From a bacterium (GTDB lineage Bacteria; Elusimicrobiota; Elusimicrobia; UBA1565; UBA9628): DNA of 64,000 nt. Location: the NCBI GenBank assembly GCA_021782205.1, contig JAJXVH010000006.1:11058-75057 (forward strand), given 5' to 3'. The notes beneath the pieces are model-generated. The model saw nothing but the letters and a program-made list of their open reading frames with translations, ran no database searches and had not been told where the DNA came from. The translations under genes were made by a program, and so were the position numbers. This document shows positions 5,874-64,000 of the stretch, piece after piece (within the stretch, counting starts at the first letter, position 1; each line of letters begins with the position of its first letter).

Positions 5874-5903
5874 TCGCGATCAAAAAAAAGGACGCGCATG
5901 GCT

Positions 5904-45351: not shown

Positions 45352-45399
45352 TTTGATTTGGGGCCGTCGGTCGCGTAACCGCGCAGTAAAAGGCTATTC

Positions 45400-47267: not shown

Positions 47268-47347
47268 TGAAGCTTGTCGCCTTTCAGCGCCGCCAATGCC
47301 ACCCGCGCCTGCAACTCAGCCTCGTACTGTCTTCGCTTCCTGCCCAT
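47261..47347 (-). pseudogene. Truncated IS3-family OrfA (transposase HTH) N-terminus
   Basis: Minus-strand translation is MGRKRRQYEAELQARVALAALKGDKLQH*. It resembles the IS3-family OrfA start (...FKARVALEALKGEKT...). The reading frame ends exactly where the right inverted repeat begins. Confidence 0.5.
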
Positions 47348-47400
47348 TTTCTGCTCCACGTTCTGAGGTCATTTTACACCTTAGCACGTGATCCGAATTT

Positions 47401-47429
47401 TTGGAAGCACCTCACAAACTAAGTAGAAT
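47401..47429 (+). promoter_or_regulatory. Putative sigma70 promoter of the AIPR gene
   Basis: TTGGAA (47401-47406), a 17-nt spacer, then TAGAAT (47424-47429). GGAGAG lies 7 nt before ATG 47478. Confidence 0.4.
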
Positions 47430-47477
47430 CGCGCTTAGAGGATCGCATGGGCCGCGTGCTCATGGGGAGAGCGATAG

Positions 47478-49250
47478 ATGCCGATTGATGACAGGCTCAT
47501 TGACCAGACTTACTCGGACTGCAAAGCAACACATGGCGGTGTCCGAGAGGACTACTTCGGGCTCCTCTACCTGGAAAAGGAGTTCAACCTACCCCGCGAT
47601 CAGGCCGCCGTCCAAGCCGCCTTCGGTGGGAACGATTACGGCCTTGACGGCTTCCACATCGATCCCGCCCGCCGGAACCTTTACCTCTTTCAGTTCAAGT
47701 GGTCGCAATCTCACGCCCTCTTCAAGCAGTCGTTGCAACGGCTCATCGAGTCGGGCATGGATCGAGTGTTTGGCAACGCCACACAGGACCCTCATCAGAA
47801 CCAAATGCTCATGCAACTCAAGAGCCGGCTCGTGACCGATCAAGCAATCATCGACCGGGTCATCATCCAATTCATTTTCAATGGCGATCCCGGAGAAGCT
47901 GATCGCAGTCAGGTGCTGGATAAGCTACGGGAGGACTTGGAGAGCAAGAAGTACCTGATCGACCAGTACTTCAAGGGCCGCTCGGTCGATATGACTTTCG
48001 AGTTCCGATCCGCTCGCACCCAGCGGGTCGGAGCCGTTGTCCATCAGCGGAAGACGCATTCATATCCTGTATCGGTCGAGAACATCATTAAGCGTCCGGG
48101 ACCCAATGGCGAAGTCATGTACGTTGGCTTCGTGAAGCTGATGGACCTCCATGCCATGTATCGGGAGATGAACTACCGGCTCTTCGAGCGCAACATCAGA
48201 GCGGGCTTGGATGCCGACAAGGCCCCGAATCGCGCGATCGCCAATGCCTTGAAGAAGATCGTGATTCACGGGACTGATAGCCCAACCGTCTTCGCGTTTA
48301 ACCATAACGGAGTGACCATCTACGCTGAGCGAGTGGATGTCCAGGAGAATGACAGCCTCCTGATCACCGAGCCTCGCGTACTCAACGGCGCGCAGACCAT
48401 CACCTCCATCGAGCGCTTCTTCGAGGCCAACGACGGGAACCAGCAACTGAAGGACCGAAGACAACGCCTAGATGAGGTCCGAGTGCTTTGCAAGGTCATC
48501 ACGCAGGCGAAGCCGGAGTTCGTGGTGGCCGTGACCGTCAACAACAACAGGCAGAACCCCGTCGAGCCCTGGGACCTTCACGCCAATGACAACATCCAGC
48601 TCGAACTCCAGGACAAGCTCCGCGAAGTCGGGATCTACTACGAACGCCAGAAGAATGCCTTCGAGAACCTGACCGAGGAAGACAAGGCGGAACTGGAAAT
48701 CACGGAGTATAAGCAGATTGAACTGCTCCGTCTCGCCAAGACCTTTCTAGCCGCCGACGGCGAGATCGACAAGATGCACCGGATGCGGGATGTCTTCGAG
48801 AACGAGAAGATCTACACCCAAGTCTTCAACGAGAGCCGGCTGCACTCGGACTCCCGACACATGGTGCTCTGCTACAAGGTCCAGCTCCGCCTGAACCGCC
48901 TGATCCGAGAGATCCTCGAGCGGGGGAGCAACAAGTACGCCTATATGCAGAAGGCAAAAAACCTCATGTGGGCTCTCTTGTGCCAGGGCGTCCTAAACGA
49001 TGACCACCTGGATACCTATGCCGAACGGTTCGGGCGCAGCTTGGTAAGCGAAGCCGACTATACCGAGTGGCTGGCTCGACTGGCTTCCACGCGCGTACGG
49101 TTTCTGATGTCCGGCGTCGTTGAGAAGGCGCCCTATGCCGATATGATGGCGGAGGAGCGTTATGACTTCCTCCGGACCCGGGCGGTTTATGATCGCTGCA
49201 TGGAGCTTGCTTACAAGAAGTGGGAGTGGGTGCATAAAAATCTCAAGTGA
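47478..49250 (+). CDS. AIPR-family abortive-infection (phage resistance) protein
   Basis: N-terminal nuclease-like GNDYGLDGFHID...LYLFQFKW. Central ...FNHNGVTIYA...RVLNGAQTITS... (the AIPR hallmark xNGxQT). Confidence 0.8.
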   Translation: MPIDDRLIDQTYSDCKATHGGVREDYFGLLYLEKEFNLPRDQAAVQAAFGGNDYGLDGFHIDPARRNLYLFQFKWSQSHALFKQSLQRLIESGMDRVFGNATQDPHQNQMLMQLKSRLVTDQAIIDRVIIQFIFNGDPGEADRSQVLDKLREDLESKKYLIDQYFKGRSVDMTFEFRSARTQRVGAVVHQRKTHSYPVSVENIIKRPGPNGEVMYVGFVKLMDLHAMYREMNYRLFERNIRAGLDADKAPNRAIANALKKIVIHGTDSPTVFAFNHNGVTIYAERVDVQENDSLLITEPRVLNGAQTITSIERFFEANDGNQQLKDRRQRLDEVRVLCKVITQAKPEFVVAVTVNNNRQNPVEPWDLHANDNIQLELQDKLREVGIYYERQKNAFENLTEEDKAELEITEYKQIELLRLAKTFLAADGEIDKMHRMRDVFENEKIYTQVFNESRLHSDSRHMVLCYKVQLRLNRLIREILERGSNKYAYMQKAKNLMWALLCQGVLNDDHLDTYAERFGRSLVSEADYTEWLARLASTRVRFLMSGVVEKAPYADMMAEERYDFLRTRAVYDRCMELAYKKWEWVHKNLK

Positions 49251-49407
49251 GGTTGACGTCCTCAACCGCCCGGAAAGCCCGGGGCTTCTAACCGATCTTA
49301 TCCGATCTCAAGCGCCAGACACATCAACTCGTTCAGCACAGTGTCGTGCCTCATCGTTTTCTCGACACGGATATCCAGTAACGTCGACATCTCTCCATGC
49401 CGCCGGC

Positions 49408-50406
49408 TTAAACGCCGCGCGAGGCGCGCAGCCACTGGGCCAGGCGCTCCATGCCCGCCTCGATGCTCACGCGCGGAGACCAGTCCAGGTCGCGCTTGGC
49501 CGCCGAGATGTCGAACCAGTGCGCGGTGGTGAGCTGGAGCACCAGGAAACGCGTCAGCGGCGGCTCGGAAGAAAGCCGCAGAGCGCGCCAGACGCCTTCG
49601 CAGGCGTTGGCCGCCGCGAAGGCCAGTCCCTTGGGGACGGAGCGCGTCGGCGGCGGCAGGCGCGCGGCGGCCAGCATCCGGCCGATGATCTCCCAGACGG
49701 GACGAGGGTCGCCGGCGGATAGGAAGTAGGCCTGGCCCGCGATCGGAGACGACGGCGAGAGCAGACGGGCGGCCTGGAGGTGGGCCTCCACCGCGTCGTC
49801 GATGTAGATCGTGTCCACGCGCTTGTCGTCGTCGCCGATGCGAAACAGCCGCCCCGCCCGCGCGCGCGCGACCACGCGCGGAAGAAGGTGCCGGTCGCCG
49901 GGGCCCCAGATCAGGTGCGGACGCAAGGAGACCGTCGCCAGCTTCTCGTGATCGGCGGCCAGGACCATCTCCTCGGACAACGCCTTGGTGCGCGAGTAGT
50001 GCGAGTCGAATTTTTTCGGATACGGCGCAGACTCGTCCACCCCCTCCGCGTCCCCGCCGTCGAAGACCACCGACGGCGAGCCGGTGAAGACCAGCTTGCG
50101 CACCCCGTGCTCGGCGCAGGCGCGCAGGACGTTGCGCGTGCCGGTCACGTTGGTCGCGAAGTAGTCCTCGTAGGTGCCCCACAGGCCCACCTTCGCGCCC
50201 ACGTGGAACACCGTGTCGCGGTCCGCGCAGGCCGCAGACACCGCGGCCGCGTCGGCCAGGTCGCCGCGCGCCGTGTCGATGCCCAACGCCTCCAGCTCCG
50301 GGTATTGGCCGCGGCCGAACACGCGCACGTCGTCGCCGCGCTCGCGCAGACGGCGCGCCAGCGCCCCGCCTAAAAACCCCCCGCCGCCGGTGACCAGGGC
50401 GCGCAT
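49408..50406 (-). CDS. oleD: OleD, NAD(P)H-dependent 2-alkyl-3-ketoalkanoate reductase (3beta-HSD/SDR family)
   Basis: ORF 49408..50991 trimmed to Met196 (MRALVTGGGGFLGGALARRL). ...YSRTKA... Last gene of the oleABCD string. Confidence 0.8.
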   Translation of the reverse strand: MRALVTGGGGFLGGALARRLRERGDDVRVFGRGQYPELEALGIDTARGDLADAAAVSAACADRDTVFHVGAKVGLWGTYEDYFATNVTGTRNVLRACAEHGVRKLVFTGSPSVVFDGGDAEGVDESAPYPKKFDSHYSRTKALSEEMVLAADHEKLATVSLRPHLIWGPGDRHLLPRVVARARAGRLFRIGDDDKRVDTIYIDDAVEAHLQAARLLSPSSPIAGQAYFLSAGDPRPVWEIIGRMLAAARLPPPTRSVPKGLAFAAANACEGVWRALRLSSEPPLTRFLVLQLTTAHWFDISAAKRDLDWSPRVSIEAGMERLAQWLRASRGV

Positions 50407-52016
50407 CACGCCAGGCGCTCCGCCGCCCAGACCGCCAGGCCCTCGCGGAAAATCTTCGCGTTGTGGCGGATGTCCACGGGAAAAGACGGATGATAGAGGA
50501 TGGTCTTGACGCAACGGGTGTGGGCGTATTTTTGGCCCAACGCCAGCAGTTCCCGCGTCAATTCCGCTTCTGCGCGCTTCGTGCCCGGCTCCAACTCCAC
50601 GCACAGCACCGGCTGGTTTTTCACGCCCACCAGCGCCGTGCGCTTGACGTTCGGATGCGCGTTGAACACCCCTTCCACCGGGATCGTGTACAGATCCCCG
50701 CCGTCCGTCTTGACGCGCTGGGACTTGCGCCCGCAAAACCACAGCCGCCCGCGCTCGTCGATGTAGCCCAGGTCGCCCATGCGGTGGCGCATGGACGCGC
50801 CGTCGCGTATTTTCGAAAGCGCCGTCGCCTCCGGCCGCCGGAAATACTCGCGCGTGACCACCGGGCCCTTCACCACGATCTCCCCGATCTCCCCGGGCCG
50901 CGCGCGCAGGGCCTCGCTCCAGGCGTGGACGGGGCCGTCGTCGACGGCGATCACCGAGACTTCCACCCCCCCCACGGGTCGGCCCACGCACACCCCGCGG
51001 CCCTCGGCCGTCATCGCCGCCGTCTCATTGAGAACCTCCGCCGAGGAGATCAGCGCCACGGGCAGGGCCTCGGTCGCGCCGTAGGGCGTGTGGATGGGCA
51101 CGCCGACGCCCAACATTTCTTTGAAGCGCGCCAGCACCTTGGCCGGCACGGGCGCTCCGGCCGACATCACCCGGCGCAGGTGCGGCAGCGCCACGCCGTG
51201 GCGCGCGCCGTAGCGGCCCACGCGGTCCAGAAGCGCGGGCGAGCCGAACAGCTGCTGGGCGCGAAACTTCTGCAGCGGCCCCACGATGGCGGCCGGGTCC
51301 ACGGAGCCCGGGCGCGTGAAGTCCATCTCGGGGATCACGGCCGTCATCCCCAGCGCCGCGTCGAAGAGCGCGAACAGCGGGAAGGTGGGCACGGAAACCT
51401 CGCCTTCCTGGATGTCGAAGAGCTCGCGCAGGAGCTCGACCTGCGCGGAAAAAACGCCGTGCGTGTAGACCGCGCCTTTCGGAGCGCCCGTGCTGCCGGA
51501 GGTGAACAGGATCGCGGCCGGGGCGTGCGCGTCCACGGACGGCGCGGCGAAAGCCCCGCGTCCGCCCACCCCGCGCAGCTCGCGCGTGTTCCACAGACCC
51601 GGGATCTTGCCGTCGGCCACCAGGCTCAGCCGCGCGGACTTGGCCCAGCGGCCCAGCAAACGCGCCAAATGCGCCTTGGGCGAGCCGATGAAGGCGGCCG
51701 CTTGCGCGTCCTCCAGGCAGCGCCCCATGTTCTTAAAGCCGATGCCCGGATCGATGAGCACCGGCACCGCCCCCAGGCGGAACAGCGCGAACGTGCAGGC
51801 AAAAAAATCCCGCGACGGCGGAACCAGCAACGCCGCGCGCTCGCCGGGCTGAAGGCCCGCGCGGCGCAGGCCCGCGGCCAGGCGCTCCACGTCCTCAGCC
51901 AACTCCGTGAAGCTGACCGTCCGTCCGCGGTGGATCAAGGCGGGCGCGTCGCCCCGCCGGGCGGCGACATCCAGAAACCGGGCGGCAACGTCCGGCCGCC
52001 CCTGCGCCGCGGTCAT
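50406..52016 (-). CDS. oleC: OleC, AMP-dependent beta-lactone synthetase
   Basis: Trimmed to Met58 (ATGA overlap with the oleB stop). ILFTSGSTGAPKGAVYTH, ...YGATEA..., ...MGDLGYIDERGRLWFCGRKSQRVK... Confidence 0.8.
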   Translation of the reverse strand: MTAAQGRPDVAARFLDVAARRGDAPALIHRGRTVSFTELAEDVERLAAGLRRAGLQPGERAALLVPPSRDFFACTFALFRLGAVPVLIDPGIGFKNMGRCLEDAQAAAFIGSPKAHLARLLGRWAKSARLSLVADGKIPGLWNTRELRGVGGRGAFAAPSVDAHAPAAILFTSGSTGAPKGAVYTHGVFSAQVELLRELFDIQEGEVSVPTFPLFALFDAALGMTAVIPEMDFTRPGSVDPAAIVGPLQKFRAQQLFGSPALLDRVGRYGARHGVALPHLRRVMSAGAPVPAKVLARFKEMLGVGVPIHTPYGATEALPVALISSAEVLNETAAMTAEGRGVCVGRPVGGVEVSVIAVDDGPVHAWSEALRARPGEIGEIVVKGPVVTREYFRRPEATALSKIRDGASMRHRMGDLGYIDERGRLWFCGRKSQRVKTDGGDLYTIPVEGVFNAHPNVKRTALVGVKNQPVLCVELEPGTKRAEAELTRELLALGQKYAHTRCVKTILYHPSFPVDIRHNAKIFREGLAVWAAERLA

Positions 52017-52903
52017 GCGGGCACGGGCTTGGCCACGAAGCCCGCGATCAGGGCCACGGCCTCCACGGGCGAGTCTTCCAAGAGAAAATGGCCGCAGTCG
52101 TAGAAGCGGCGCGCGTCGGCGTGCGGAAAGCGGCGCGTCCAGCCGTTCAGGAAGTGCTCGTCGAACACCCAGTCCTTCATCCCCCACGCCAGCAGCATGG
52201 GCGTGTCTTTAAAAAGCCCCAGCTTGGACTCGGTGTCGGAGAGGACCTGCCAGGCCGGCTCCGCGATCCCCAGCGGGATGTCCTGCACGAAGCGGTGCAC
52301 GGCCAGGCTTTGCCGCCAGCCGTCGCAGACGGACAGGTAGCCGTCCTCCGCCGCCGGCGACAGCGGCCGCTTGGCCGTGCAGGTGCGCAAGACCGCGCGC
52401 CGCGCCAGGCGGCTGCCGCGCAGCACCAGCCCCGCCGCCCCGCCGCGCAGCAAGGACAGCAGCGGCGGCAGGCCTTTCTCGCGCGGCAGGCGGAAGCACG
52501 CGGTGTTCGAGGCGACGATCGCCTTCACGCGCTCGGGATGGCGCGCGGCCCAGGACATGCCGATCATCCCGCCCCAGTCGTGCAGCACCAGAGTGATCGG
52601 ACCCGAAGGGGCGACGCGCTCGACCAGGCGTTCCAGATCATCGACGCGGGACTTGAGCGTGTAGGCGTAGCGGTCCTCGCCCGGCCGGTCGGACAGACCC
52701 ATGCCGATGTGGTCGGGCGCCAGGCAGCGGTGCGTGGCGCGCAGGGCCTGGACCAGCCCGCGGTAGTAGAACGACCAGGTGGGGTTTCCGTGGACCATCA
52801 GCACGGTCTCGCCTTGCCCCTCGTCGAGGTAGTGCATCGCGTAGCCGCCCAGATCCAGACGCTTGCCCTCAAACGGATACAGCGCCTTCCAAGACTCGCT
52901 CAT
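52013..52903 (-). CDS. oleB: OleB, alpha/beta-hydrolase (haloalkane-dehalogenase-like) beta-lactone decarboxylase
   Basis: HYLDEGQGETVLMVHGNPTWSFYYR, ...LVLHDWGG... The ATG at 52903 overlaps the oleA stop (ATGA); the track start at 52909 is a GTG. Confidence 0.8.
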   Translation of the reverse strand: MSESWKALYPFEGKRLDLGGYAMHYLDEGQGETVLMVHGNPTWSFYYRGLVQALRATHRCLAPDHIGMGLSDRPGEDRYAYTLKSRVDDLERLVERVAPSGPITLVLHDWGGMIGMSWAARHPERVKAIVASNTACFRLPREKGLPPLLSLLRGGAAGLVLRGSRLARRAVLRTCTAKRPLSPAAEDGYLSVCDGWRQSLAVHRFVQDIPLGIAEPAWQVLSDTESKLGLFKDTPMLLAWGMKDWVFDEHFLNGWTRRFPHADARRFYDCGHFLLEDSPVEAVALIAGFVAKPVPA

Positions 52904-53916
52904 CGCCACTCCCAGCCCAGCATCAGGCAGTTCAGCCCCGAGCCGATGCCCAGGAAGCCCACCTTGTCGCCTCTATCCAAGAAGCCGCGCTCGTCGGCCA
53001 GCGCCGCCGTCAGCGGCAGGCTCACCGTGCCGATATTGCCCAGATACTCATACGTCGCGTAGTCCTTTTCCAGCGGCACGCCGAACGCGCCCAGCACCGC
53101 CGCGCGGTGCGGCCCGCCCACCTGGTGGCAAACGGTCTTGTCGACCGCGCCCGCGCTCCAGCCCAGCTCGTCCGTGAATTTTTTCCACGTGCCGCGCGCT
53201 AATTCCACGCCGCTCTTGAGCACCGCCGCCGCGTCGGTGCGCATGAAGTCGCGGTCCCAGCGGCACAAATCCCAGTGCTCCGGCGCGGACTGCGCCGCGC
53301 CGCCCAGCAGGCGGGGGCCGTCCGCGCCCAGCGACCCGTCCGTCAGCAGGACCGCGACCGCGCCCGAGCCCCCGGTCAAGGTGGCGATCGACAGCTTGAA
53401 ATGCTCCATCGTGGGACGCGCCAGCATGGAGGCGATCATGCTCTCGTTGATCTCGCGCGCCGACTCGCAGGACACGATCAGCCCGGCCCGGATCTGGCCC
53501 AGCTCGATGCGGTTGGCCACGTCCACGATGCCGCTCAAGACTCCCAGGCAGGCGTTGGACAGGTCGTAGACCGCGCAGTCCCGGCCCACGCCCAGCGCCG
53601 CCGCCACCGCGCACGCCGTCGCCGGCTCAGCACCCTCGCGGCAGACGCCCGCGTAGACCAGCGCGCCCAGCGCGTCCGCGGACACGCCGGACTTCGCCAG
53701 CGCTTTCTTGCCCGCGCGCGCGGCCCCCTCCGCCAGCTTGAAGCCCGCGTCCCACCACCGCCGCTCGCGGATGCCCGTCAGCGCTTCCAATTGGCCCGGC
53801 GAAAAGCGCAGGGCGTCGTAGAGCGCCGCCACGCGGCCTTCCAGCGCCGCCGACGACACGACGTTCGGCGCCAATTCGTAGGCCAGGGCGCCCAGCGTGA
53901 CTTTTTGATAGCGCAT
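52900..53916 (-). CDS. oleA: OleA, FabH-like thiolase (head-to-head Claisen condensing enzyme)
   Basis: ORF 52900..54051 trimmed to Met46. ...GQLEALTGIRERRWW..., active-site context DLSNACLG, ...CHQVGG..., ...GIGSGLNC... Confidence 0.8.
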   Translation of the reverse strand: MRYQKVTLGALAYELAPNVVSSAALEGRVAALYDALRFSPGQLEALTGIRERRWWDAGFKLAEGAARAGKKALAKSGVSADALGALVYAGVCREGAEPATACAVAAALGVGRDCAVYDLSNACLGVLSGIVDVANRIELGQIRAGLIVSCESAREINESMIASMLARPTMEHFKLSIATLTGGSGAVAVLLTDGSLGADGPRLLGGAAQSAPEHWDLCRWDRDFMRTDAAAVLKSGVELARGTWKKFTDELGWSAGAVDKTVCHQVGGPHRAAVLGAFGVPLEKDYATYEYLGNIGTVSLPLTAALADERGFLDRGDKVGFLGIGSGLNCLMLGWEWR

Positions 53917-53949
53917 GGATGAAGGCGCGCCGCCGACGGCGCGAGGGGT

Positions 53950-53958
53950 AATATACCA
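53950..53958 (-). promoter_or_regulatory. Possible extended -10 promoter (TGGTATATT) for oleA
   Basis: Minus-strand TG-n-TATATT lies 34 nt upstream of the oleA ATG. The duplicated copy at 55339-55347 reads TGGTCTATT. Confidence 0.3.
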
Positions 53959-54074
53959 ATCTCGACGGGTGCAATGCCTCGCGCCGGTGTCGCGTCGACA
54001 TCCGCGCTGGCGCGAGGTCCCAGACACGAGCAGGTCCTTTGGCCCAGGCATTTAGGCCCGCATGACCTATATTT

Positions 54075-55452: not shown

Positions 55453-55481
55453 TTGAGGTCGGGCGCAACGCCTGCTACACT
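55453..55481 (+). promoter_or_regulatory. Putative sigma70 promoter of the FAAL operon
   Basis: TTGAGG (55453-55458), a 17-nt spacer, then TACACT (55476-55481), 35 nt before ATG 55517. Confidence 0.35.
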
Positions 55482-55516
55482 ACGGTCGCAAGCGCCGCGA
55501 CGGCGTTCACGCGCAC

Positions 55517-57205
55517 ATGAAGATCAAAGCTCCGGTCGGCCGCGCCGGACAGGACATAAAGACCCTCGTCGATCTGCTTTTATGGCGGGCGGACTCCGAA
55601 CCCGAGCGCCTCGCTTTTTCGTTTTATACGGACGGGGAGAAAACCGGCGCCGCGCTGACCTGGCGGCAGCTTGACGCGAATGCCCGGAAAATCGCCGCGC
55701 GCTTGGCGCGCGACGGAGCGCCCGGGCGGCGCGCGCTGATGGTCTATCCGCGCTGGGAGCAGTTCGTGCCGGCGTTCTTCGGCTGTCTTTACGCCGGGTG
55801 CGTTCCCATTCCCGCGCCGGCGCCGCATCCGGCCCTCCTCAAGAGAGCCGCCCCGCGGCTTCGGGCCGTGGGAGAGGATTGCTCGGCCTCGCTCGTTCTG
55901 ACGACCTCCACACTGGCGCGCGAATTCGCCGCGCTCAGCGCCGCCGCCTCCGCGCTGCCGGCCGCGGCGGTCATCGTGGCGACCGACGCGCTTGACGGCG
56001 AAAACTCATCTGGATTCCGGCCCCGCCGCGCGCAGGCCGAGGATCTCCTCTGCCTGCAGTACACCTCCGGATCGACCCACGCTCCCCGCGGAGTGATGAT
56101 CACCCATCGGAATTTTCTGCAGAACTCCCGCTACCTGAGCGAATTTCTGGAGTCCGCTGCGGACCGCAGCCTGGTCACCTGGCTGCCGCACTACCATGAC
56201 ATGGGTTTGGTGAGCGCGCTGCACTGCCTCGACGCGGGCATGTCGGTTCACGCGATGAATCCCATCGATTTTATCAAGCACCCCGGCCGCTGGCTGCGCG
56301 CCATCTCCCGCGTCGAGAACCGCGTCATCTCCGGCGCCCCGAATTTCGCCTATGACCTATGCTTGAGATCCATTTCGGATTCCGAACTGGCGGAGCTGGA
56401 TTTGAGCCGGTGGAGCCTGGCCTGGAACAGCGCCGAGCCGGTGCGCTCGGACACCCTGCGGGAATTCGCGCGCCGCTTCGAACGCTGCGGTTTCCGGCCC
56501 GAGGCTCTTCGACCCTGCTACGGATTGGCGGAAGCGACTTTGATCGTCAGCGGCGCGCCGCCCGCGTCGCAGGCGCAGATCGGCGGCCGCGCCATTGTGA
56601 GCGGCGGCCGCGTTTTCGCGGGAGAGAAAGTCCGCGTCGTCTCGCCGCGGACCCGGCGCGTCTGCGCTCCGGGCCGCGTCGGAGAAATCTGGGTTTCCGG
56701 CGCGAGCGTGGCGAAAGGCTATTGGGGAAACGCGCGCCAAACGCGCGCCGTCTTCCAGGCGCGCACCGCCGACGGTGAAGGTCCCTTCCTGCGGACGGGC
56801 GACTTGGGCTTTTTGCGCGACTCGGAGCTGTTCATCACGGGCCGTCTCAAGGACATGATCGTTCTGCGCGGGCGCAAGTATTACCCGGAGGACATCGAAC
56901 TGGCGGCCGAATCCGCCCATCGCGCCGTCCGGCGGGGCGGCTGCGCGGCCTTCGGCATCGAGGTCGGCGGCGTTGAAAAGCTGGCTCTCGTCATCGAGCT
57001 CGAAAGCGGCGGCGCCACGCAGGCCGAGGTGATCGCGGCGGCGCGCCGCTCTGTCGCCGAGCGCTGCGACGTCGAGCTGCACGACGCCGTCGCGGTTCGC
57101 CGCGGCGAGCTTCCGCGGACGACCAGCGGCAAGATTCGCCGTCGCGAATGCCGCCGGCTTTATCTGGGGGGCCGCTTCGCCGCGCGCCAGGCGCCGACGG
57201 CATGA
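55517..57205 (+). CDS. Fatty acyl-AMP ligase (FAAL, FadD32-like)
   Basis: N-terminus TLVDLLLWRADSEPERLAFSF. LCLQYTSGSTHAPRGVMITHRNFLQN, APNFAYDLC, FLRTGDLGF, GRLKDMIVLRGRKYYPEDIE, TTSGKIRR. Confidence 0.85.
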   Translation: MKIKAPVGRAGQDIKTLVDLLLWRADSEPERLAFSFYTDGEKTGAALTWRQLDANARKIAARLARDGAPGRRALMVYPRWEQFVPAFFGCLYAGCVPIPAPAPHPALLKRAAPRLRAVGEDCSASLVLTTSTLAREFAALSAAASALPAAAVIVATDALDGENSSGFRPRRAQAEDLLCLQYTSGSTHAPRGVMITHRNFLQNSRYLSEFLESAADRSLVTWLPHYHDMGLVSALHCLDAGMSVHAMNPIDFIKHPGRWLRAISRVENRVISGAPNFAYDLCLRSISDSELAELDLSRWSLAWNSAEPVRSDTLREFARRFERCGFRPEALRPCYGLAEATLIVSGAPPASQAQIGGRAIVSGGRVFAGEKVRVVSPRTRRVCAPGRVGEIWVSGASVAKGYWGNARQTRAVFQARTADGEGPFLRTGDLGFLRDSELFITGRLKDMIVLRGRKYYPEDIELAAESAHRAVRRGGCAAFGIEVGGVEKLALVIELESGGATQAEVIAAARRSVAERCDVELHDAVAVRRGELPRTTSGKIRRRECRRLYLGGRFAARQAPTA

Positions 57206-57465
57206 GTCTCAATCCGCCGCGACGGCCGAGCGAAGGAGAATTCGAACGCTGGATCGCCGCCCGCCTGTCGCGCGAATTGGGCATTCCCATAGAGGAATTC
57301 GACCCCGGCGCCGATTTCACGACCCTGGGGATCAACTCCGTCGCGCTGGCCGGCATGTTCGGCGAACTCGAGAAGCGGACGGGGCGGCGCCTGGACCCGT
57401 ATCTTCTGACCGAATGTCAGAACGCGCGGGCGCTCGCGCGCCTCCTGGAAGGCGGCGACGCATGA
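57202..57465 (+). CDS. Acyl/peptidyl carrier protein
   Basis: Trimmed to ATG 57202 (ATGA overlap with the FAAL stop). 87 aa. Phosphopantetheine-site context DFTTLGINSVALAGM. Confidence 0.8.
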   Translation: MSLNPPRRPSEGEFERWIAARLSRELGIPIEEFDPGADFTTLGINSVALAGMFGELEKRTGRRLDPYLLTECQNARALARLLEGGDA

Positions 57466-58874
57466 ACGACGGCGCGCGGCCCGCCGTGCACGAAGGACGC
57501 GGACCCGGCCTGGCGTCCTTCTGGACCGCGTTCCTGCTCGGCGGCGCCGCCGCGCTGCTGGCGGGCGCCTGGGGTCTCCGGGCGGCCTCCAGGCCGCGCG
57601 CGGGCCGCGCCCGCCAAGACCGCGCGGCGTTGAATCAGTTCATCGCGGCCCTTCCGCCTGGAGACGCCGTGCCCGGCGTCGAGAGCCCGCGCTTGGCCAA
57701 GAGCCTGCGGCTGTTCGTCGCCAAGCCGCTCGGCCTCAAGTCCGGAGCGGCCATCGATCCGCTCGCTTCTCCGGGACTTTTCGCGGCGCTTTTCCCGGGC
57801 TACCCGGAGACCATGAGGAACGACTCCGGCCTGTGGCGGGACTACTTCTCTCGAGAATTCGGCACGAAGGTCTCCTCGGGCCGCCTCGGCGCCGCGTCGC
57901 CGGACGGCGCGACCGCTTTCTATTCCTGGACCGGCTGCATCGACGTGTTCCGCCGCTATGGGGCCGACGTCGTCCTCCTGGGCGCGTCCGACACGGCGCA
58001 AGGAGTGGCTCCCGACCTTCTGGCGAGGCTCCTGCGCGAAAGCGGCGTTCCCGCGCTGGCGAACGCGCGGGTTCTTTCGTGTGAGACGCCGACGATGCTC
58101 CCGGAAGTCGCGCGAGACACGGCCGCGATGCTGGCCGGCACCGGGCGGCGCGCCCGGTGGGTCGTCTACGGTTATTCTCCAGGCAACAGCGACACGCGCG
58201 CCCCTGAATACGACGAAATTCTGGCCGATAAGCGGGCGGCCCTGCGCGACTATCGAGAAAACCTGACGCTGGGTCCGCTGGCGGCCTGGGACCGCCCCGT
58301 CGCCTTTCCTTGGTCCTGGAACGAACTGCTGCCCTTGCGCGCCGATGACTCGCAGGTCATGCTGAACCTGCTGCAGGAGGATCACGCGGAGCGGTCGAGG
58401 AGGCGGGCGGTGAAATTCGACCTGCGGATTCCGGACGAGGTCGCCCGGTCTTCGTCGACGCTCGCCGCGTTCACGCGCGGCCTGAAGCTGCCCCATCCAT
58501 TTCTTCATGACCTCGCCGACGCGGGCTGCGGGGAATTCTCGGACTCGGCCCCGCGCTTGGCGGACGCGCTGTTGGCGATGCACGGGCTCGGCGCCGCCAC
58601 GCTTCTCTTCGTCGATCCCACCACGGGATTGGAACTGTCGACCGCGCCGGCCTGCTACGCCCGCACGGAGAGGGCGATGGTCGCCCGCGCCCGGGCCACG
58701 CTTGTCGACGCCGCGGATGCCGCGGAAATGGGTCTTGATCCGACGGACTTCATCTACGAATCCCCGCCCGGCTCGCGGCGTTATTGGCTCAACACCACGC
58801 ACGTCAACAAGCGCGGCGCCGAAAAGCTCACGCGGCGCCTCGCCGCGGACATACTCCAAGGCGAACGCCGATGA
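57462..58874 (+). CDS. Membrane-anchored extracytoplasmic protein, tentatively DltD/AlgJ-like (SGNH-related)
   Basis: ATG 57462 (ATGA overlap). TM LASFWTAFLLGGAAALLAGAWGL. By eye, VVLLGASDTAQG and C-terminal WLNTTHVNKRGAEKL recall the DltD blocks (FLLGAGGSTDL; DAVHIGWKGW). Position is between the carrier protein and the MBOAT. Confidence 0.5.
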   Translation: MNDGARPAVHEGRGPGLASFWTAFLLGGAAALLAGAWGLRAASRPRAGRARQDRAALNQFIAALPPGDAVPGVESPRLAKSLRLFVAKPLGLKSGAAIDPLASPGLFAALFPGYPETMRNDSGLWRDYFSREFGTKVSSGRLGAASPDGATAFYSWTGCIDVFRRYGADVVLLGASDTAQGVAPDLLARLLRESGVPALANARVLSCETPTMLPEVARDTAAMLAGTGRRARWVVYGYSPGNSDTRAPEYDEILADKRAALRDYRENLTLGPLAAWDRPVAFPWSWNELLPLRADDSQVMLNLLQEDHAERSRRRAVKFDLRIPDEVARSSSTLAAFTRGLKLPHPFLHDLADAGCGEFSDSAPRLADALLAMHGLGAATLLFVDPTTGLELSTAPACYARTERAMVARARATLVDAADAAEMGLDPTDFIYESPPGSRRYWLNTTHVNKRGAEKLTRRLAADILQGERR

Positions 58875-60340
58875 GCTACATACGCCCCGAGTTTTTTCTT
58901 TTTTTTGCCTTCGTGCTCGGAGTCTATCTCGTGGTCCGCGGCCGGAGCCCGCGCACGGCGCTGCTGATCGCCGCCAGCCTCGCCTACTACGCCTGCGCCG
59001 GTCTTTTCGACCTTCTCATCTTTTTAGCGGTCGTCGTCTTCTCGTATTGCGCCGCGCGGCTGGCGCAGGCGCACCCGCGCCGGCGCGGATTCTTTCTTTT
59101 CACGGCGGTCGCCGCGCTGACGGCGCACCTCGTGTTCTGGAAGTACCTCCCGTGGATCGCCAGCGGTTGGCAGACGCTCGACCCCGCCTTCATGGGCGGC
59201 CGGAGCATCGCGCTGCGCCTGCCGCTCGGCATCAGCTTCTTCACGTTCCAGGGCATCGCCTATCTCGTCGACTATTGGAGAGAGACTATCGTCATGATGG
59301 GCTTCGCGGAGTATCTGCTCTACCATTCGTTGTTCTCGCACATGATCGCGGGGCCGATCGTGAGGGCGCGCCAACTGCTCCCGCAGCTGCGGGAACTGAC
59401 GGGGCCGACGCCGGAGGACTTGGGCGTAGGCGCCGCTCTGTTCGCGCGCGGGCTCGTCAAAAAAATGCTGATCGCCGACCGCGTTGCGCCGTTCGTCGAC
59501 ATGGTCTTCGTCTCGCCCGGAAAATGGGGCCGAGAGGCGCTGGTCTGGAGCGCGATCGGCTTCGCCGTGCAACTCTGGGGAGACTTCAGCGGCTACACGG
59601 ACATGGGGCGAGGCACGGCGCGGATGCTGGGCTTGCGCCTGCCGGAAAATTTCATGAGCCCGTTTCTCTGCCGAAAGCCCTCCGAATTCTGGGAGCGCTG
59701 GCACATCACCCTCAGCCATTGGGCGCGCGACTACGTCTTCTGGCCGCTGAGGCAATGGGCGCTCGCCCCTTTCGCGACGGCGCTACTCCTCGGCCTGTGG
59801 CACGGAAGCAATTGGACGTTCCTGCTCTGGGGCTTCTATTTGCGCGCGCTCTTCGTCGCAGAGGACGCCGTTTGCGCCAGCCCGGTCGGACGTCTCTGGA
59901 GCCGACTGCCCGACGCCCTTCGGCACGCAGCGCTCATCCCGCTGACCCTGACAGCCAACATCGCCGGCATCGTGATCTTTCGCTCGGAAAGCCTTTCCAA
60001 GCTTCTTGAATACATCGCCGCGCTTTTCGGCGGACCGCTGAACGGCGCGGCGTCGACGGCGTTCGGCACGACGGTCATGCTGGAACATTTTTATCCGGCC
60101 GCCGCTCTCGCTCTTTTTTTCGAAGCGCTGTTTTATCGGCGACTGCAAAATCGGGAGTGGCGGCCGTTCGGCGCGTGCTCCGGAGCAAACGCGCTCGACT
60201 CCGCCGTCCGAGCGCTGGAAGCGCGCGTCGTCGCGTGGCCTGCGGGCCTCGTACTTGGCGCCGCCGTGGCCGCGAGCGCTCTTGCCGCGATTTTCTTCCG
60301 CCAGGGCGACGCCGCCTCGTTCATCTACTTCAGTTTTTAA
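58871..60340 (+). CDS. MBOAT-family membrane-bound O-acyltransferase (AlgI/DltB-like)
   Basis: ATG 58871 (ATGA overlap). Polytopic. Hallmarks FWERWHITLSHWARDYVF and catalytic-His context LLLGLWHGSNWTF. Confidence 0.85.
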   Translation: MSYIRPEFFLFFAFVLGVYLVVRGRSPRTALLIAASLAYYACAGLFDLLIFLAVVVFSYCAARLAQAHPRRRGFFLFTAVAALTAHLVFWKYLPWIASGWQTLDPAFMGGRSIALRLPLGISFFTFQGIAYLVDYWRETIVMMGFAEYLLYHSLFSHMIAGPIVRARQLLPQLRELTGPTPEDLGVGAALFARGLVKKMLIADRVAPFVDMVFVSPGKWGREALVWSAIGFAVQLWGDFSGYTDMGRGTARMLGLRLPENFMSPFLCRKPSEFWERWHITLSHWARDYVFWPLRQWALAPFATALLLGLWHGSNWTFLLWGFYLRALFVAEDAVCASPVGRLWSRLPDALRHAALIPLTLTANIAGIVIFRSESLSKLLEYIAALFGGPLNGAASTAFGTTVMLEHFYPAAALALFFEALFYRRLQNREWRPFGACSGANALDSAVRALEARVVAWPAGLVLGAAVAASALAAIFFRQGDAASFIYFSF

Positions 60341-61295
60341 GCGACGCGCCGTCGATCGAGTCGAAAAAAAGATGGAGCGTGCCCATCGCCGAGACGTTCT
60401 CCTGAAGCGGGTTGTCGTAGGTCACGGAGAACTCATATTCCACGTTCTTTTCCAAGAGCAGGCCCGTTTTATCGGAATAGACGGGAACTTCAAGCATCTC
60501 CCGGCGAGAGCCTTCGGCGGGATGGCCCGATAACAGGACGTGACCCGTCGCGACGGCGCGCAGGGCGTAACCGACGCCGTAGCGATGGATGTGCACGGTC
60601 GCGAAATGCACGCGACCGGAGGCGGGCAGGGTGAACCGGACCGTGTATTCATGGCGTCCCGGCGGAACCCACCACATGTGCATGAGATCCTCGCGCGCCG
60701 ACGACGCCATCTGCTTGGCGTCGCGACGCGACCGCCCGCGCCGAGAGAAGCCTTCCCCCGGTCCGATGCGCACGCTGACGTGATAGAGCGGACGAACCGA
60801 AACGCGCTCCGCGTCCGCGACGAAGTTGAAGGCGACCTTGAAATAATACCGCGCATCGATGGAATCATACGGGCTCTGGAGCATCGCCTCGACGACGTAG
60901 AGGCTGGTCGTGTCGACGTGAAAGCCGAAGCCGGCCGGAAAAGAGATCGTGTCCTGGCCCGCGGTCAGCGGCAGATTATTGCCGAACTGATAGTCTTCCC
61001 CGCTCAGATTGATCGCCGTCGGCGGGGCGCGAAAAACCGCGTGGCAGAAGACGGTGTTGTCGGGGCTCGGCCGCTGATCGGCGTCCAGCAGATGCACGCC
61101 GAAGCTCCGAATCCAACCGGGCCGGTCGAACTGGATCGTGGTCGTGATGTAAGGGCCCATCATCGTGGGATGCCGGCCCTTCAGGCGCAACGGACCGAGG
61201 GTCTGATCGATCTCCTCCGCGCCCGACGCGGCGGCGAGCGCGACGAACGCCGCCGCGGCGAGGAGCGCGGCAAACGACCCGTGTCGCATGATCAT
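60330..61295 (-). CDS. Secreted hypothetical protein with HxH...M pattern (possible PHM/DBH-like copper monooxygenase fold)
   Basis: Start taken at Met20 (overlaps the upstream stop). Signal MIMRHGSFAALLAAAAFVALAAASG. HFATVHIHRYG ... NVSAMGTLHLFF. The fold assignment is weak and by eye only. Confidence 0.55.
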   Translation of the reverse strand: MIMRHGSFAALLAAAAFVALAAASGAEEIDQTLGPLRLKGRHPTMMGPYITTTIQFDRPGWIRSFGVHLLDADQRPSPDNTVFCHAVFRAPPTAINLSGEDYQFGNNLPLTAGQDTISFPAGFGFHVDTTSLYVVEAMLQSPYDSIDARYYFKVAFNFVADAERVSVRPLYHVSVRIGPGEGFSRRGRSRRDAKQMASSAREDLMHMWWVPPGRHEYTVRFTLPASGRVHFATVHIHRYGVGYALRAVATGHVLLSGHPAEGSRREMLEVPVYSDKTGLLLEKNVEYEFSVTYDNPLQENVSAMGTLHLFFDSIDGASLKN

Positions 61296-63079
61296 AGGCG
61301 GCGGTGCAAGCCCGACTCGGGCCAGCGAAAGCGGACCTCGCGCTTCGCCCAAGACGCGAATTCCGCGCGCAGTTCTCCCCTCCCGCGCAGCGTGATCGTG
61401 ACCGAGCCGGCGCGGCCCAGCCGATCCGCGTCGGCGAACGAAGTCGGCCGCGGCGCCGCCTCGATTAGAGGAGCCTTGATCGGCGCCAGTTCCCAGCGGC
61501 CGTCGCTGGAGCGAACGATCCTGCCGATGGCGCGACCATCGAGCAGCAGTTCGGGGGAGCGCAGCGCGCCGGCCGCGATCCCGAGGCGGGCCGGCCAGTC
61601 CGGCGCGGCGACGAGTCGGCGCGCGCGATCACGGTTCGGGCGCCGCGAGCGGTCCTCCGCCGCCGCCGAGAATCCCGCCTGCCCGATCGCGACGCGCGGA
61701 TCGAACAAAGACGCTTCCCCCAAGGGTATTCGCCGTTGCGGAGCCGTCGCGTCCGGCAAGAGCTCCAAGCGCATGCCCGGCCGCAAATCGAAATCTAGTG
61801 GAAAATAAAGCGCGTCGAGCGTGTTGCCCCCCGGAACGGACAGCGCAAGCAGGGCGCGGATGCCGCGAGCGCGAAAGTCCACGATGCGCGGAGCGACGCC
61901 GAAGGCCGCGACGTCGGCAAAGGTCCCGATGTCGGCGCCTCCAAGCGACAAGTCGGCGCTCGCAAAACGGTCCAACGGCACGGGCTCGCCACGGCCCGCG
62001 GCAATGCGCGGCAACGAGAATTCAAGCTCATTCCACGCGGCCGGATCACGCCCTCTCAGGACGTCGGCGTAAGCTTTCGCGATCAGAGCATTGCCCATGG
62101 CCGTTGGATGCTTACGCGCCCAATATGGGAAGCTTCTGGGCAGAGGGATCGTCTCCAGCACCAACTTGGAGGACAGTTTCACAGCCAGCGGTGAGAGTTC
62201 GTGGTCCAGGTCGAAAACGACGACCTGACGAGAGGAATCGGACATTTTTCCCAGCAGAAGTCCGGCGATTCGCGTCAACTCGCGCCGGACAGACTTGCGC
62301 GAATAATAGAACGGATTGCGCAAGGTCCGGCGCCGAGGCAGAAGGCACTGCAGAAAGGCCGGCGGCCTCAGGTCGTAGCGCAGGTAGTCCCAGCGCGGCA
62401 GAAAGCGGAAATAGTCGCGAAAGCGGGCGTCGAAATCGCGGCCGCCGCTCACGTCGACGAAGGCCGCGTCTCCGCCATTCAGCACATAGCGCCCGTGCAA
62501 ATAATAAGGCTCCGCATCCTCGCCGTGGTTGAACGTCGCGTCGCGCTCGACGCGCAGGGCGGCCGGCCCGACCAGAACGTAGTCCAGATCGTAGCCTCGC
62601 CCAAAGGTTTCCCAAAAGCGGTAAATCTGGTGCAATCCGTGCCAGGGATTACCGAAATTGATAACCTCCACGTCGTGCCGGCCCGCCGCGCGCAGGCGCC
62701 GGGCCAGCAGAGACGGGAAATCCAGCCCCGGCGCCACGTTGTAGCCGTCGGTAAACGAATCTCCAAAGGCGCCGATGCGGACGACTCCCGCGGGCTTGCG
62801 GCGCGACGCCTCGGTGAAGCGCCCGGCGCGCGGCTCCGCGACGCTGCCGATGGAATTGAGAACGTCCTCCGGAACTCCCGATCGGAGGGCGACGGCGGCG
62901 AAGGAAACGGCCGGACGCCTTTGCTCCAGCCGCCCGACGTAGCGCCGCCAGAGCGCGGCGTCGGCCGCCAGCAAGACGAGCAGCGCGCCGCAAACCAGGG
63001 CCAGCCGCGGCCAAAGTCCGCGCCGCGAAAGCTCCGCGCGCTTTTGAAAACCGGAACGTCGGCGGGGCTCCTCGCTCAC
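61292..63079 (-). CDS. Membrane-anchored SGNH/GDSL-family hydrolase/acyltransferase with ~250-aa C-terminal extension
   Basis: TM LWPRLALVCGALLVLLAA. Block I RIGAFGDSFTDGYN. Block V-like ARKHPTAMGNALIAKAY. Confidence 0.7.
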   Translation of the reverse strand: MSEEPRRRSGFQKRAELSRRGLWPRLALVCGALLVLLAADAALWRRYVGRLEQRRPAVSFAAVALRSGVPEDVLNSIGSVAEPRAGRFTEASRRKPAGVVRIGAFGDSFTDGYNVAPGLDFPSLLARRLRAAGRHDVEVINFGNPWHGLHQIYRFWETFGRGYDLDYVLVGPAALRVERDATFNHGEDAEPYYLHGRYVLNGGDAAFVDVSGGRDFDARFRDYFRFLPRWDYLRYDLRPPAFLQCLLPRRRTLRNPFYYSRKSVRRELTRIAGLLLGKMSDSSRQVVVFDLDHELSPLAVKLSSKLVLETIPLPRSFPYWARKHPTAMGNALIAKAYADVLRGRDPAAWNELEFSLPRIAAGRGEPVPLDRFASADLSLGGADIGTFADVAAFGVAPRIVDFRARGIRALLALSVPGGNTLDALYFPLDFDLRPGMRLELLPDATAPQRRIPLGEASLFDPRVAIGQAGFSAAAEDRSRRPNRDRARRLVAAPDWPARLGIAAGALRSPELLLDGRAIGRIVRSSDGRWELAPIKAPLIEAAPRPTSFADADRLGRAGSVTITLRGRGELRAEFASWAKREVRFRWPESGLHRRL

Positions 63080-63106
63080 CGCCGATATCTTACCTTTCCA
63101 CGCGCC

Positions 63107-64000
63107 TTACTCCGCCAGACGGCGCAACAGGATGTCCTCGTATTTCTCGGCGGTCTGAGGAGAGCGGCGCCGGATGTCGCGCGTTTCGCCGGGGTCGGCG
63201 CGGCGATCATAGAGCAAGAGCGACAGGCAGCGCTTCTCTGGAGCGGCGGCCGATGACGGGCACTCCTCGCGCAGAAGACAGGCGTAGTGCCTGTCGCGCA
63301 CCGCGTAATTTCCCCGCCAGGCGGCGAACGCCGCGCCGCCCGAATCCATGCGGCCTCCCGCGATGATCGGCATCAGCGACACGCCCTGCATCGAAGCCGG
63401 CGGCGCGGCCCCCACGGCCTGAAGAACGGTCGGCATGACGTCGATGCTCTGCACGACGGCGCTTGAGCGCACGCTCAAGCGCGCGCCCGGAAACGCAAAA
63501 ATCAACGGGACTTTCAGCGCCTCGACATGAACGTTGCCCCCATGACCGTGACGCCAGGTCCCGTGCTCGCCGAACGCCTCGCCATGATCCGAGGTCACCA
63601 CAATCAAGGTGCGCTCCAAGAGGCCGCGACGCCCCAACTGGCGCAGGAGTTCCCCGAGGGCTTCGTCGGCCTCGTAGACGGACGCGTCGTAGAGCGCCCG
63701 CACGTACGCGCGGTCACGCGCCCGGTCCAGATCGAAGCGATCCCAATAGATCTTGTCCAAGACTTTCCAAGAACTGAGATGTTTGGCTCCGCCGCTCCCT
63801 CCCGCGTCCAACAGCGCGGCCAACGCGCTCCAGTTCGGCGGCCGCGAGGCGTCCGCGAATATCTCGGGATGAGCGGCGATGACCGCGGGCGAGAACACTC
63901 TCTGCGGCGAGCGGCTCACGCGCGCGGCCGCCTCGCGTTCAAGAGCTTCGAAGGAAATGCTCTTTTCCGGGTCCAGCGCGGGCAGGAAACGGCGGGCCGC
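63107..64000 (-). CDS. Sulfatase / alkaline-phosphatase-superfamily protein (LtaS/arylsulfatase-like), C-terminal part; 5' end beyond window
   Basis: VVTSDHGEAFGEHGTWRHGH. The frame stays open from the GTG at 63919 to position 64000 (I translated ...AARRFLPALDPEKSISFEALEREAAAR-VSRSPQ...), so the gene is truncated by the window. Confidence 0.75.
   Translation of the reverse strand, partial: AARRFLPALDPEKSISFEALEREAAARVSRSPQRVFSPAVIAAHPEIFADASRPPNWSALAALLDAGGSGGAKHLSSWKVLDKIYWDRFDLDRARDRAYVRALYDASVYEADEALGELLRQLGRRGLLERTLIVVTSDHGEAFGEHGTWRHGHGGNVHVEALKVPLIFAFPGARLSVRSSAVVQSIDVMPTVLQAVGAAPPASMQGVSLMPIIAGGRMDSGGAAFAAWRGNYAVRDRHYACLLREECPSSAAAPEKRCLSLLLYDRRADPGETRDIRRRSPQTAEKYEDILLRRLAE

Follow-up and report, generated by a model that had tools for sequence, protein, structure and literature searches.

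A predicted acyl relay joining a carrier protein to an MBOAT and an SGNH-like partner in an operon of Elusimicrobia

Here we describe a four-gene operon of Elusimicrobia that, in our judgement and with modest confidence, encodes an acyl relay in which a dedicated carrier protein would feed a membrane-bound acyltransferase of the MBOAT family and its SGNH-like partner. The operon lies in a stretch of 64,000 nucleotides (positions 11,058 to 75,057 of contig JAJXVH010000006.1, GenBank assembly GCA_021782205.1, lineage UBA9628), which we call the window and number from its first letter. The conserved unit across lineages is the MBOAT gene together with the gene for a 470-amino-acid (470-aa) SGNH-like protein, and the remaining two genes, for a ligase and a carrier protein, appear to be a donor module that is interchangeable with at least one other kind, such modules having been attached repeatedly to this core.

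In the proposed relay, each step of which is drawn from homology, motifs and gene linkage, the FAAL-clade ligase encoded by the first gene would adenylate a fatty acid and load it as a thioester on the Ser46-phosphopantetheine of the 87-aa carrier protein. The MBOAT would accept the acyl group from its carrier at the cytoplasmic face and, through His311, transfer it to its own Tyr486 in the FIYFSF motif, an acceptor tyrosine that we place at the outer surface of the inner membrane. The membrane-anchored 470-aa protein would then take the group on Ser176, with His447 as base, and pass it as an ester to an acceptor outside the cytoplasm, for which a hydroxyl on an envelope glycopolymer is the most probable candidate. 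The coupling of the two genes suggests that the ligase loads the neighbouring carrier protein, and the two later transfers, His311 to Tyr486 and then Tyr486 to Ser176, would follow the established mechanism of homologous systems.

The four-gene operon and its products

The operon occupies positions 55517-60340 of the plus strand, where four open reading frames (ORFs) specify, in order, the ligase, the carrier protein, the 470-aa protein and the MBOAT. An ATGA tetranucleotide is found at all three junctions, so that each stop codon overlaps the next start by 4 bp, an arrangement usually taken as a sign of translational coupling. This chain of plus-strand genes with three ATGA overlaps had been reported in an earlier note on this DNA, and both the ORF listing and the junction sequences bear it out; the motifs quoted there (LQYTSGSTHAPRGVMITHRNF, LGINS with Ser46, FWERWH and LWHG) are likewise all present. 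Public assemblies of the same organism carry identical copies of the operon with identical gene calls, and the G+C content around it is ~66-71%. A promoter and terminator scan of the operon returned no more than chance expectation, and there is no microprotein gene among the ORFs within it. The features of the operon are as follows.

55517-57205, plus strand: FAAL-clade adenylate-forming ligase, 562 aa (Pfam AMP-binding, 1.9e-59, and DIP2-like AMP C-terminal domain)
56570-56590, plus strand: insertion site of the ligase, at about residues 352-358, after the CYGLAEA motif; the FAAL-specific insertion is absent
57202-57465, plus strand: stand-alone carrier protein, 87 aa (Pfam PP-binding, 1.4e-12, 48 bits against a cut-off of 20.8)
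57462-58874, plus strand: 470-aa membrane-anchored protein of an undescribed family, with a predicted SGNH-like large domain (family motifs and AlphaFold2 model; no Pfam match)
58871-60340, plus strand: MBOAT, 489 aa (Pfam MBOAT, 3.6e-18)

By sequence comparison the ligase belongs to the FAAL clade and not with DltA or the amino-acid activators. Its best NCBIfam models are all FAALs (the PRK05691 FAAL loading domain at 436 bits, PRK05850 at 409 bits, FadD21 and FadD32), with every score below the curated equivalog cut-off, whereas the DltA model PRK04813 reaches only 98 bits (cut-off 476). The closest solved structure is the FAAL domain of a Picosynechococcus PCC 7002 polyketide synthase (PKS; 7R7E-G, E 1e-127), followed by a Legionella FAAL (3KXW), FadD23, FadD32, EcFAAL and FadD28, with DltA far behind (E 3e-23); the closest of the solved relatives for which the substrate is known use C12-C16 acids. 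Since FAAL models and structures alike outscore DltA, the FAAL-clade reading of the ligase stands, and the clustering with D-alanine or other amino-acid-activating enzymes that the earlier note had named as counting against its reading is not what we find (409-436 versus 98 bits; E 1e-127 versus 3e-23).

The ligase is, however, as judged from residue alignments, an insertion-less member of that clade. The FAAL-specific insertion is the feature that separates FAALs from acyl-CoA ligases (PMC11837247), and its deletion from mycobacterial FAALs gave weak CoA activity only (PMC8460268). Just after the CYGLAEA motif, 7R7G, 3KXW and 8HD4 (FadD23) are each ~19-21 residues longer than the window ligase. 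The placement of the insertion at this point is supported by EcFAAL, in which Glu366, assigned to the insertion motif in PMC6122825, falls ~25 residues past the equivalent of CYGLAEA. A ligase orthologue of 54% identity from another locus (L001; like all the relatives used in this study, metagenome-derived) aligns without gaps across the site, so the insertion is missing there too and its loss is conserved. The description of the ligase as FAAL-type in the earlier note thus agrees with its clustering and not with its sequence at this site.

The carrier protein, whose start codon overlaps the stop codon of the ligase gene in the first ATGA, has its predicted phosphopantetheine attachment residue at Ser46 in the GINS motif (57337-57339).

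The 470-aa protein, which has an N-terminal membrane helix at about residues 17-42, represents a family that, although rare, is real. Scans of this protein and of 87 family members against Pfam and NCBIfam assigned no family and gave no DltD match, with 6 of the 87 weakly matching the Pfam model of the SGNH domain fused to AT3 proteins. A word-indexed homologue search returned four proteins only, and an exhaustive profile search, run over 1.84 billion cluster representatives, returned 127 family members (counted as representatives at 50% identity), 112 of them at E <=1e-10. In an alignment of 87 sequences Gly174 and Ser176 are invariant, within a consensus G-x-S-E in which the serine is mostly followed by Glu or Asp, while His447, Cys356 and Cys398 are each kept in at least 90% and the histidine block has the consensus D-x-N-H-x-N-x-x-G-A. 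The candidate nucleophile is Ser176 in LLGASD (57987-57989) and the candidate base His447 in LNTTHVN (58800-58802). Four cysteines are conserved (159, 207, 356 and 398), all of them invariant among the 16 closest sequences. The order of the motifs is that of SGNH block I followed by block V, and the 271 residues between Ser176 and His447 are comparable with the 302 residues spanned by Ser74, Asp373 and His376 of DltD (PMC13653941).

An AlphaFold2 model of the protein built on the 87 sequences (pLDDT 89.2, pTM 0.89) has an N-terminal helix at residues 16-42 and places Ser176 at a strand-to-helix turn and His447 directly before the final helix; it supersedes a first model built from 4 homologues, which had reached a pLDDT of 55.8. 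The top Foldseek neighbours of the model belong to the SGNH enzymes, namely YxiM (probability 0.93), PAF-acetylhydrolase, Axe2 (0.91), Lip_vut3 and TesA; all of them are non-significant, and the TM-scores normalised to the query do not exceed 0.29. The DltD structure 7DXM ranks 11th (E 0.33, TM-score 0.21-0.24). Comparison by hhalign with a genuine GDSL_2 protein of the same contig aligned block V, D-x-x-H-x-N-x-x-G, at E 3.4e-4 and a probability of 38%. The family has the motifs of blocks I and V; blocks II and III were not identified. The charges flanking the membrane helix weakly favour an N-in, C-out topology across 72 members. From its sequence and model, the 470-aa protein most likely works like DltD or PatB, without demonstrable membership of either family. 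The earlier note had called it DltD-like and looked for a structural relation to DltD/SGNH proteins: the SGNH part of this finds some support in the motifs and in a weakly SGNH-like fold, and the DltD part has to be given up as a family assignment, given the absence of a Pfam or NCBIfam match and the low structural rank.

The MBOAT carries the two conserved histidines of its family, His278 in WERWH and His311 in LWHG (59801-59803). It aligns to the DltB structures 6BUG and 8JEM over both motifs, His311 with the histidine of DltB GFWHG and His278 with that of DltB NRWH, and has ~90 extra residues at its C-terminus; the DltB model TIGR04091 gives 124 bits against a cut-off of 375. The C-terminus itself reads FIYFSF followed directly by the stop codon (60320-60337), with Tyr486 at 60326-60328, and an F[IV]YFxF ending is shared by the window protein and all seven orthologues examined from other loci. 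FXYXXF is the acyl-shuttle motif of such systems: the tyrosine of PatA is auto-acetylated and hands the group to a serine of PatB, and in Dlt the motif sits on the microprotein DltX, from which the group is relayed to the DltD serine (PMC12148441). The MBOAT is not DltB-like in architecture, the shuttle motif being fused at its C-terminus as in PatA and AlgI. No genes for alginate, cellulose or peptidoglycan acetylation lie near the MBOAT in the window, and it belongs to none of these known acetylation loci.

The MBOAT–470-aa pair and its donor modules

Gene neighbourhoods were obtained for 15 distinct lineages of the 470-aa family, against 127 known representatives. An orthologous MBOAT gene (35-62% identity) immediately adjoins the 470-aa gene in every one of the 15, usually downstream with the gene ends overlapping or abutting, once upstream and once divergently oriented. 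A degenerate DNA pattern (W-x-G-C-x-D...Y-G-A-D) run on metagenome contigs yielded 8 short stretches, 3 of which encode family members (L013, L014 and L015), with an MBOAT gene adjacent in L014 and L015, and a locus search with a 7-sequence alignment yielded at least two true loci.

In six lineages the pair is accompanied by a carrier protein and an enzyme that would load it, which is a FAAL-like ligase in three and FkbH in the other three. The full four-gene cassette occurs in the window organism and in two relatives, all Elusimicrobia, whose 470-aa proteins are 84% and 59% identical to that of the window. The 84% relative, an Elusimicrobia metagenome-assembled genome, has the same cassette flanks as the window, whereas those of the 59% relative are entirely different and include no ole or other lipid genes. 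In the three FkbH lineages an FkbH-family loader and a PP-binding protein lie beside the pair, joined in two of them by a fusion of MaoC and a short-chain dehydrogenase, and one of these loci sits inside a polysaccharide gene cluster (GT1, Polysacc_synt_2, DegT and GT87). FkbH loads a small polar C3 unit.

Because the pair is adjacent in all 15 lineages and the donor modules vary, what is conserved is the two-gene pair of MBOAT and 470-aa SGNH-like protein and not the whole cassette. The ligase together with the carrier protein would form one donor module, exchangeable with at least one other kind, and such modules have become attached to this core more than once. The co-occurrence of the four genes that the earlier note asked for holds in two further Elusimicrobia lineages and does not hold at sister loci that have an FkbH carrier module or no donor module.

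Several further features of these loci may be recorded here. In the FkbH-type locus of P0008 (JGI sample 3300047160), a 44-aa ORF with a weak DUF5989 match lies at 10828-10962, between the MBOAT gene and the carrier-protein gene, and might be a DltX-like membrane microprotein. At locus L025, an RVT_1 reverse-transcriptase gene (4861-6321), possibly a group II intron or retron-type element, separates the polysaccharide genes from the FkbH gene. At locus L009 (6800-7400 and 11079-17449) the pair lies beside a tRNA-like sequence and an island of integrase, Toprim/DUF3987 and HTH_17 genes, which suggests that the pair can sit at an insertion site of mobile elements. In two carrier-less lineages, radical-SAM genes (B12-binding or SPASM) and several methyltransferase genes lie by the pair (L004, 15409-18529; L005, 5688-6425, 9240-10259 and 10256-12058). 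Small ORFs upstream of the pair at loci L004 and L007 were checked as hidden carrier proteins and are not carrier proteins.

Cargo, acceptor and alternative readings

Several observations weigh against the relay as drawn above. Among the 11 lineages for which sufficient flanking DNA is at hand, five, with ~8 kb or more of context, have no dedicated carrier protein. Since the FAAL insertion is absent from the ligase, exclusive loading of a carrier protein would not be assured, and the linkage of orthologous pairs to FkbH is a sign that members of the family may carry small acyl groups and not long chains. The literature, moreover, describes Dlt as the one pathway with a carrier protein and has fused-shuttle MBOATs drawing on acyl-CoA (PMC12148441). 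As to the 470-aa protein, asparagine takes the place of the triad aspartate both in the window protein and in the two relatives closest to it (NTTH or NASH), and the flanking charges of the window protein itself leave its topology unsettled. No profile search places it in a known family (Pfam, NCBIfam or PDB): Foldseek of the model against the PDB found nothing at E <=0.001 (best E 0.058), and querying the PDB with a profile of the 87 aligned sequences returned spurious triosephosphate-isomerase hits only, at E >=0.18. Finally, there are no acceptor-synthesis genes linked to the cassette in the window.

A long-chain fatty acid as the cargo seems to us to fall slightly short of an even chance, and we hold this with less confidence than the relay as a whole because the FkbH-linked sisters imply that the MBOAT family can carry small polar groups. 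More tentative still, and doubtful when all its parts are taken together, is the full reading as a prokaryotic form of extracytoplasmic lipidation, in which a long-chain acid would pass from a FAAL-type ligase to the carrier protein, to the MBOAT histidine, to an acyl-tyrosine, to the SGNH-like serine and so to a periplasmic glycan, lipid or protein, within a modular family served by FAAL-type or FkbH-type modules. The leading rival to the relay scheme, which we think unlikely, is that the same machine handles a short, medium or functionalised acid and leaves a small ester on a glycan, like acetyl, D-alanyl or the FkbH-derived C3 unit. Such a cargo would suit the three lineages in which orthologous pairs are coupled to FkbH and a carrier protein, and it would agree with the characterised bacterial MBOAT–SGNH systems treated in PMC12148441, which move acetyl or D-alanyl groups. 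FAALs with C4-C6 substrates are also on record (2025 FAAL review, PMC11837247), and the window ligase departs from canonical FAALs. Set against this are the C12-C16 acids used by the closest solved relatives of known substrate and the fact that the best NCBIfam models of the ligase are long-chain FAALs.

With regard to the acceptor in the proposed relay, an envelope glycopolymer is most probable by analogy, because glycopolymers are what all the bacterial MBOAT–SGNH pairs characterised so far acylate (PMC12148441) and one sister locus lies within glycan genes. The genes that converge on the operon from the right are listed below.

60330-61295, minus strand: secreted protein, 321 aa (MIMRHGS..., signal peptide) by the public gene call; the longest ORF is 340 aa, from 61352
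61292-63079, minus strand: 595-aa membrane-anchored protein; GDSF (SGNH block I) in its N-terminal region, the long C-terminal part uncharacterised
63107-64000, minus strand: sulfatase/alkaline-phosphatase-superfamily protein, C-terminal part (Pfam Sulfatase, 1.9e-20)

The gene for the secreted protein runs towards the MBOAT gene, the two sharing 11 bp at their ends; the secreted protein has no match in Pfam, NCBIfam or, by sequence, the PDB. The 595-aa protein likewise has no PDB match by sequence, and matches Pfam GDSL models at residues 102-157 below cut-off (E 3e-4). We considered it as a paralogue of the 470-aa protein, which is unsupported (hhalign probability 1.2%). Its stop codon overlaps the start of the 321-aa gene in an ATGA at 61292-61295 on the minus strand, which makes the sulfatase, 595-aa and 321-aa genes look like a second coupled operon. 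The sulfatase gene continues for ~495 bp beyond the window end and encodes 462 aa in the full contig; among NCBIfam models the PehA, arylsulfatase and choline-sulfatase families match at E about 1e-18 and LtaS at E 1e-4, a difference that rules out an LtaS-like reading. All three genes are kept only in the 84% relative (L022), and are absent from the cassette of the 59% relative and from the other loci.

These results alter the earlier account of the convergent genes in part: the genes are present, but their link to the operon is conserved only in the 84% relative; the secreted protein is likelier to be the 321-aa form with a signal peptide; the GDSF block I is there in the 595-aa protein, with GDSL models matching only below their cut-offs; and of the sulfatase/LtaS-superfamily label the sulfatase half survives.

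Alkaline-phosphatase-superfamily enzymes often act on lipid or glycan phospho-groups. Proteins of this superfamily (Sulfatase or Phosphodiest) recur by the pair in three lineages, L004 (8182-9549 and 12929-14821), L006 (2501-4585 and 5733-7778) and the window (63107-64000). By tblastn they are not orthologous to one another. Their recurrence may hint at a phospho-substituted acceptor.

A non-glycan acceptor for the same machine, whether a membrane lipid head-group, lipid A or the lipopolysaccharide core, or a secreted or periplasmic protein lipidated in the manner of Porcupine, Hhat and GOAT, appears improbable to us. The convergence on the operon of a secreted protein and a second membrane-anchored SGNH protein, mutually translationally coupled, would fit such an acceptor, as would the recurring alkaline-phosphatase-superfamily enzymes and the lack of glycan-synthesis genes flanking the window cassette. 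Yet the convergent genes are missing from the cassette of the 59% relative and from all other loci, the characterised bacterial pairs all acylate a glycopolymer (PMC12148441), and the one sister locus noted above is embedded in a polysaccharide cluster.

On the other side of the operon, 1.5 kb upstream, four overlapping or abutting minus-strand genes (49408-54051) follow the oleABCD domain order, with thiolase/KAS-III-like, alpha/beta hydrolase, AMP-binding and NAD-dependent epimerase/3-beta-HSD-like domains. The ole-type neighbours named in the earlier note are thus there in the expected domain order; the 84% relative has them next to the operon too, the 59% relative does not. Past the sulfatase gene (L019 17211-21108, corresponding to about window 64670-68570) there follow an ORF of 146 aa rich in Cys, a GDSL_2 lipase/acylhydrolase of 286 aa and a protein that is at least 825 aa long, has four FabA-like dehydratase domains and resembles the dehydratase of polyunsaturated fatty acid (PUFA) synthases; with the GDSL_2 and FabA-like genes, more lipid genes flank the locus.

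Such neighbours leave room for a reading in which the ligase and carrier protein feed a cytoplasmic lipid pathway of ole or PUFA type and the MBOAT and 470-aa protein are an ordinary acetyl-CoA-dependent O-acetyltransferase that happens to share the transcript. It would account for oleABCD lying so close upstream and for the four-FabA-domain protein just past the window end, for the reported use of acyl-CoA by MBOATs with a fused motif (PMC12148441), and for the finding that about half of the pairs have no carrier protein. We nevertheless hold it to be quite improbable, in that all four genes are coupled by 4-bp overlaps, the same cassette occurs in the 59% relative with no ole or other lipid genes nearby, and independent lineages have placed a different carrier module (FkbH) beside the same pair. 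It is very unlikely, lastly, that the 470-aa protein is a modification-removing esterase or a non-catalytic scaffold beside an MBOAT that acts directly on the acceptor, as eukaryotic MBOATs do: its fold and family assignments are weak and its triad aspartate has become asparagine, but the serine is invariant and the histidine kept in at least 90% of the 87 sequences, the gene adjoins the MBOAT gene in 15 of 15 lineages, the C-terminal tyrosine motif of the MBOAT serves an SGNH partner, and SGNH enzymes with Ser-His dyads are active.

One more feature of the upstream DNA concerns the window at large. A low-GC stretch at ~44000-50000 (G+C 0.56-0.61, against about 0.68-0.70 elsewhere) holds a plus-strand gene (47478-49250) for a 590-aa protein with a match to Pfam AIPR (abortive-infection phage resistance), and the segment may be a horizontally acquired defence island.

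Significance and relation to known acylation systems

From work on DltBDX and PatAB it has been concluded that a carrier protein is used by Dlt alone and that fused-shuttle MBOATs use acyl-CoA (PMC12148441). The window operon and its FkbH sisters suggest a third arrangement, in which fused-shuttle MBOATs would be fed by dedicated carrier proteins and the cargo would be set by a swappable loader. If this is true, the acyl groups that bacteria can attach to their envelope would come to include fatty acyl and glyceryl-type ones, a new family of SGNH-like transferases that neither Pfam nor NCBIfam contains would be defined, and there would be a tractable test of whether bacterial MBOATs move long chains, as the eukaryotic lipidating MBOATs do. 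The modular lipidation reading, if it holds, would make the acyl group itself a swappable cargo. The operon further shows that a FAAL-clade enzyme can lose the FAAL-defining insertion and yet stay coupled to a carrier protein. What appears to be new here is the SGNH-like family and the unusual insertion-less FAAL-clade ligase. The earlier note was aware of no characterised bacterial system of such composition, and a full-text literature search agrees, having found no description of a system combining a FAAL or FkbH with a carrier protein, an MBOAT and an SGNH protein.

Dlt is the closest precedent for the supply of the donor. As in Dlt, an adenylating ligase would load a small dedicated carrier protein, from which the MBOAT would draw the acyl group; an FXYXXF acyl-tyrosine would relay it to a serine in a membrane-anchored protein of SGNH type, which has a large domain and the layout Ser...D-x-x-H; and everything is encoded in one operon. 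Domains and motifs thus uphold the Dlt-like logic, from ligase through carrier protein and MBOAT to an extracytoplasmic serine enzyme, that was first proposed for this locus. Unlike in Dlt, the window ligase is of the FAAL clade (409-436 bits) and not a DltA (98 bits), the shuttle motif is fused to the MBOAT and not carried on a DltX microprotein, the MBOAT scores 124 bits against the DltB cut-off of 375, and its partner is no detectable relative of DltD. The hosts differ as well: the window organism belongs to the diderm Elusimicrobia, whereas Dlt acts on the teichoic acids of Gram-positive bacteria, and teichoic acids are not known from diderms.

In the architecture of its MBOAT the window system resembles PatA/PatB, AlgI/AlgJ/AlgF/AlgX and WssH/WssI. 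In all of these the MBOAT ends in F-x-Y-x-x-F and a separate, N-terminally anchored SGNH or SGNH-like partner is encoded alongside, and the ~90 C-terminal residues that the window MBOAT has beyond DltB are consistent with additional transmembrane helices. Those systems, however, have neither ligase nor carrier protein and are fed by acetyl-CoA (PMC12148441), whereas the window has both, translationally coupled, and its SGNH-like partner falls outside the Pfam families of PatB, AlgX, AlgJ and WssI.

Stand-alone modules of a FAAL and an acyl carrier protein (ACP), such as JamA/JamB, CylA, FadD32 and FadD10/Rv0100, share with the window a FAAL-clade ligase gene beside that of its own carrier protein; they differ from it in that the window ligase lacks the insertion. 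FadD10, which Liu et al. reportedly described in 2013, is a precedent for an ACP-loading enzyme without it. The known modules, unlike the one proposed here, feed cytoplasmic PKS, nonribosomal peptide synthetase (NRPS) or lipid assembly, and the 2025 review of FAALs never mentions an MBOAT (PMC11837247).

Porcupine, Hhat and GOAT provide a parallel only if the window cargo is a fatty acid, in which case the window MBOAT, like them, would move a fatty acyl chain to an acceptor outside the cytoplasm or in a lumen. Their donor is acyl-CoA and they acylate the protein substrate directly, with no tyrosine shuttle, SGNH partner or carrier protein. Taken together, these comparisons point to a combination not described before, in which the window system would be Dlt-like in the supply of its donor and PatAB/AlgIJ-like in the architecture of its MBOAT.

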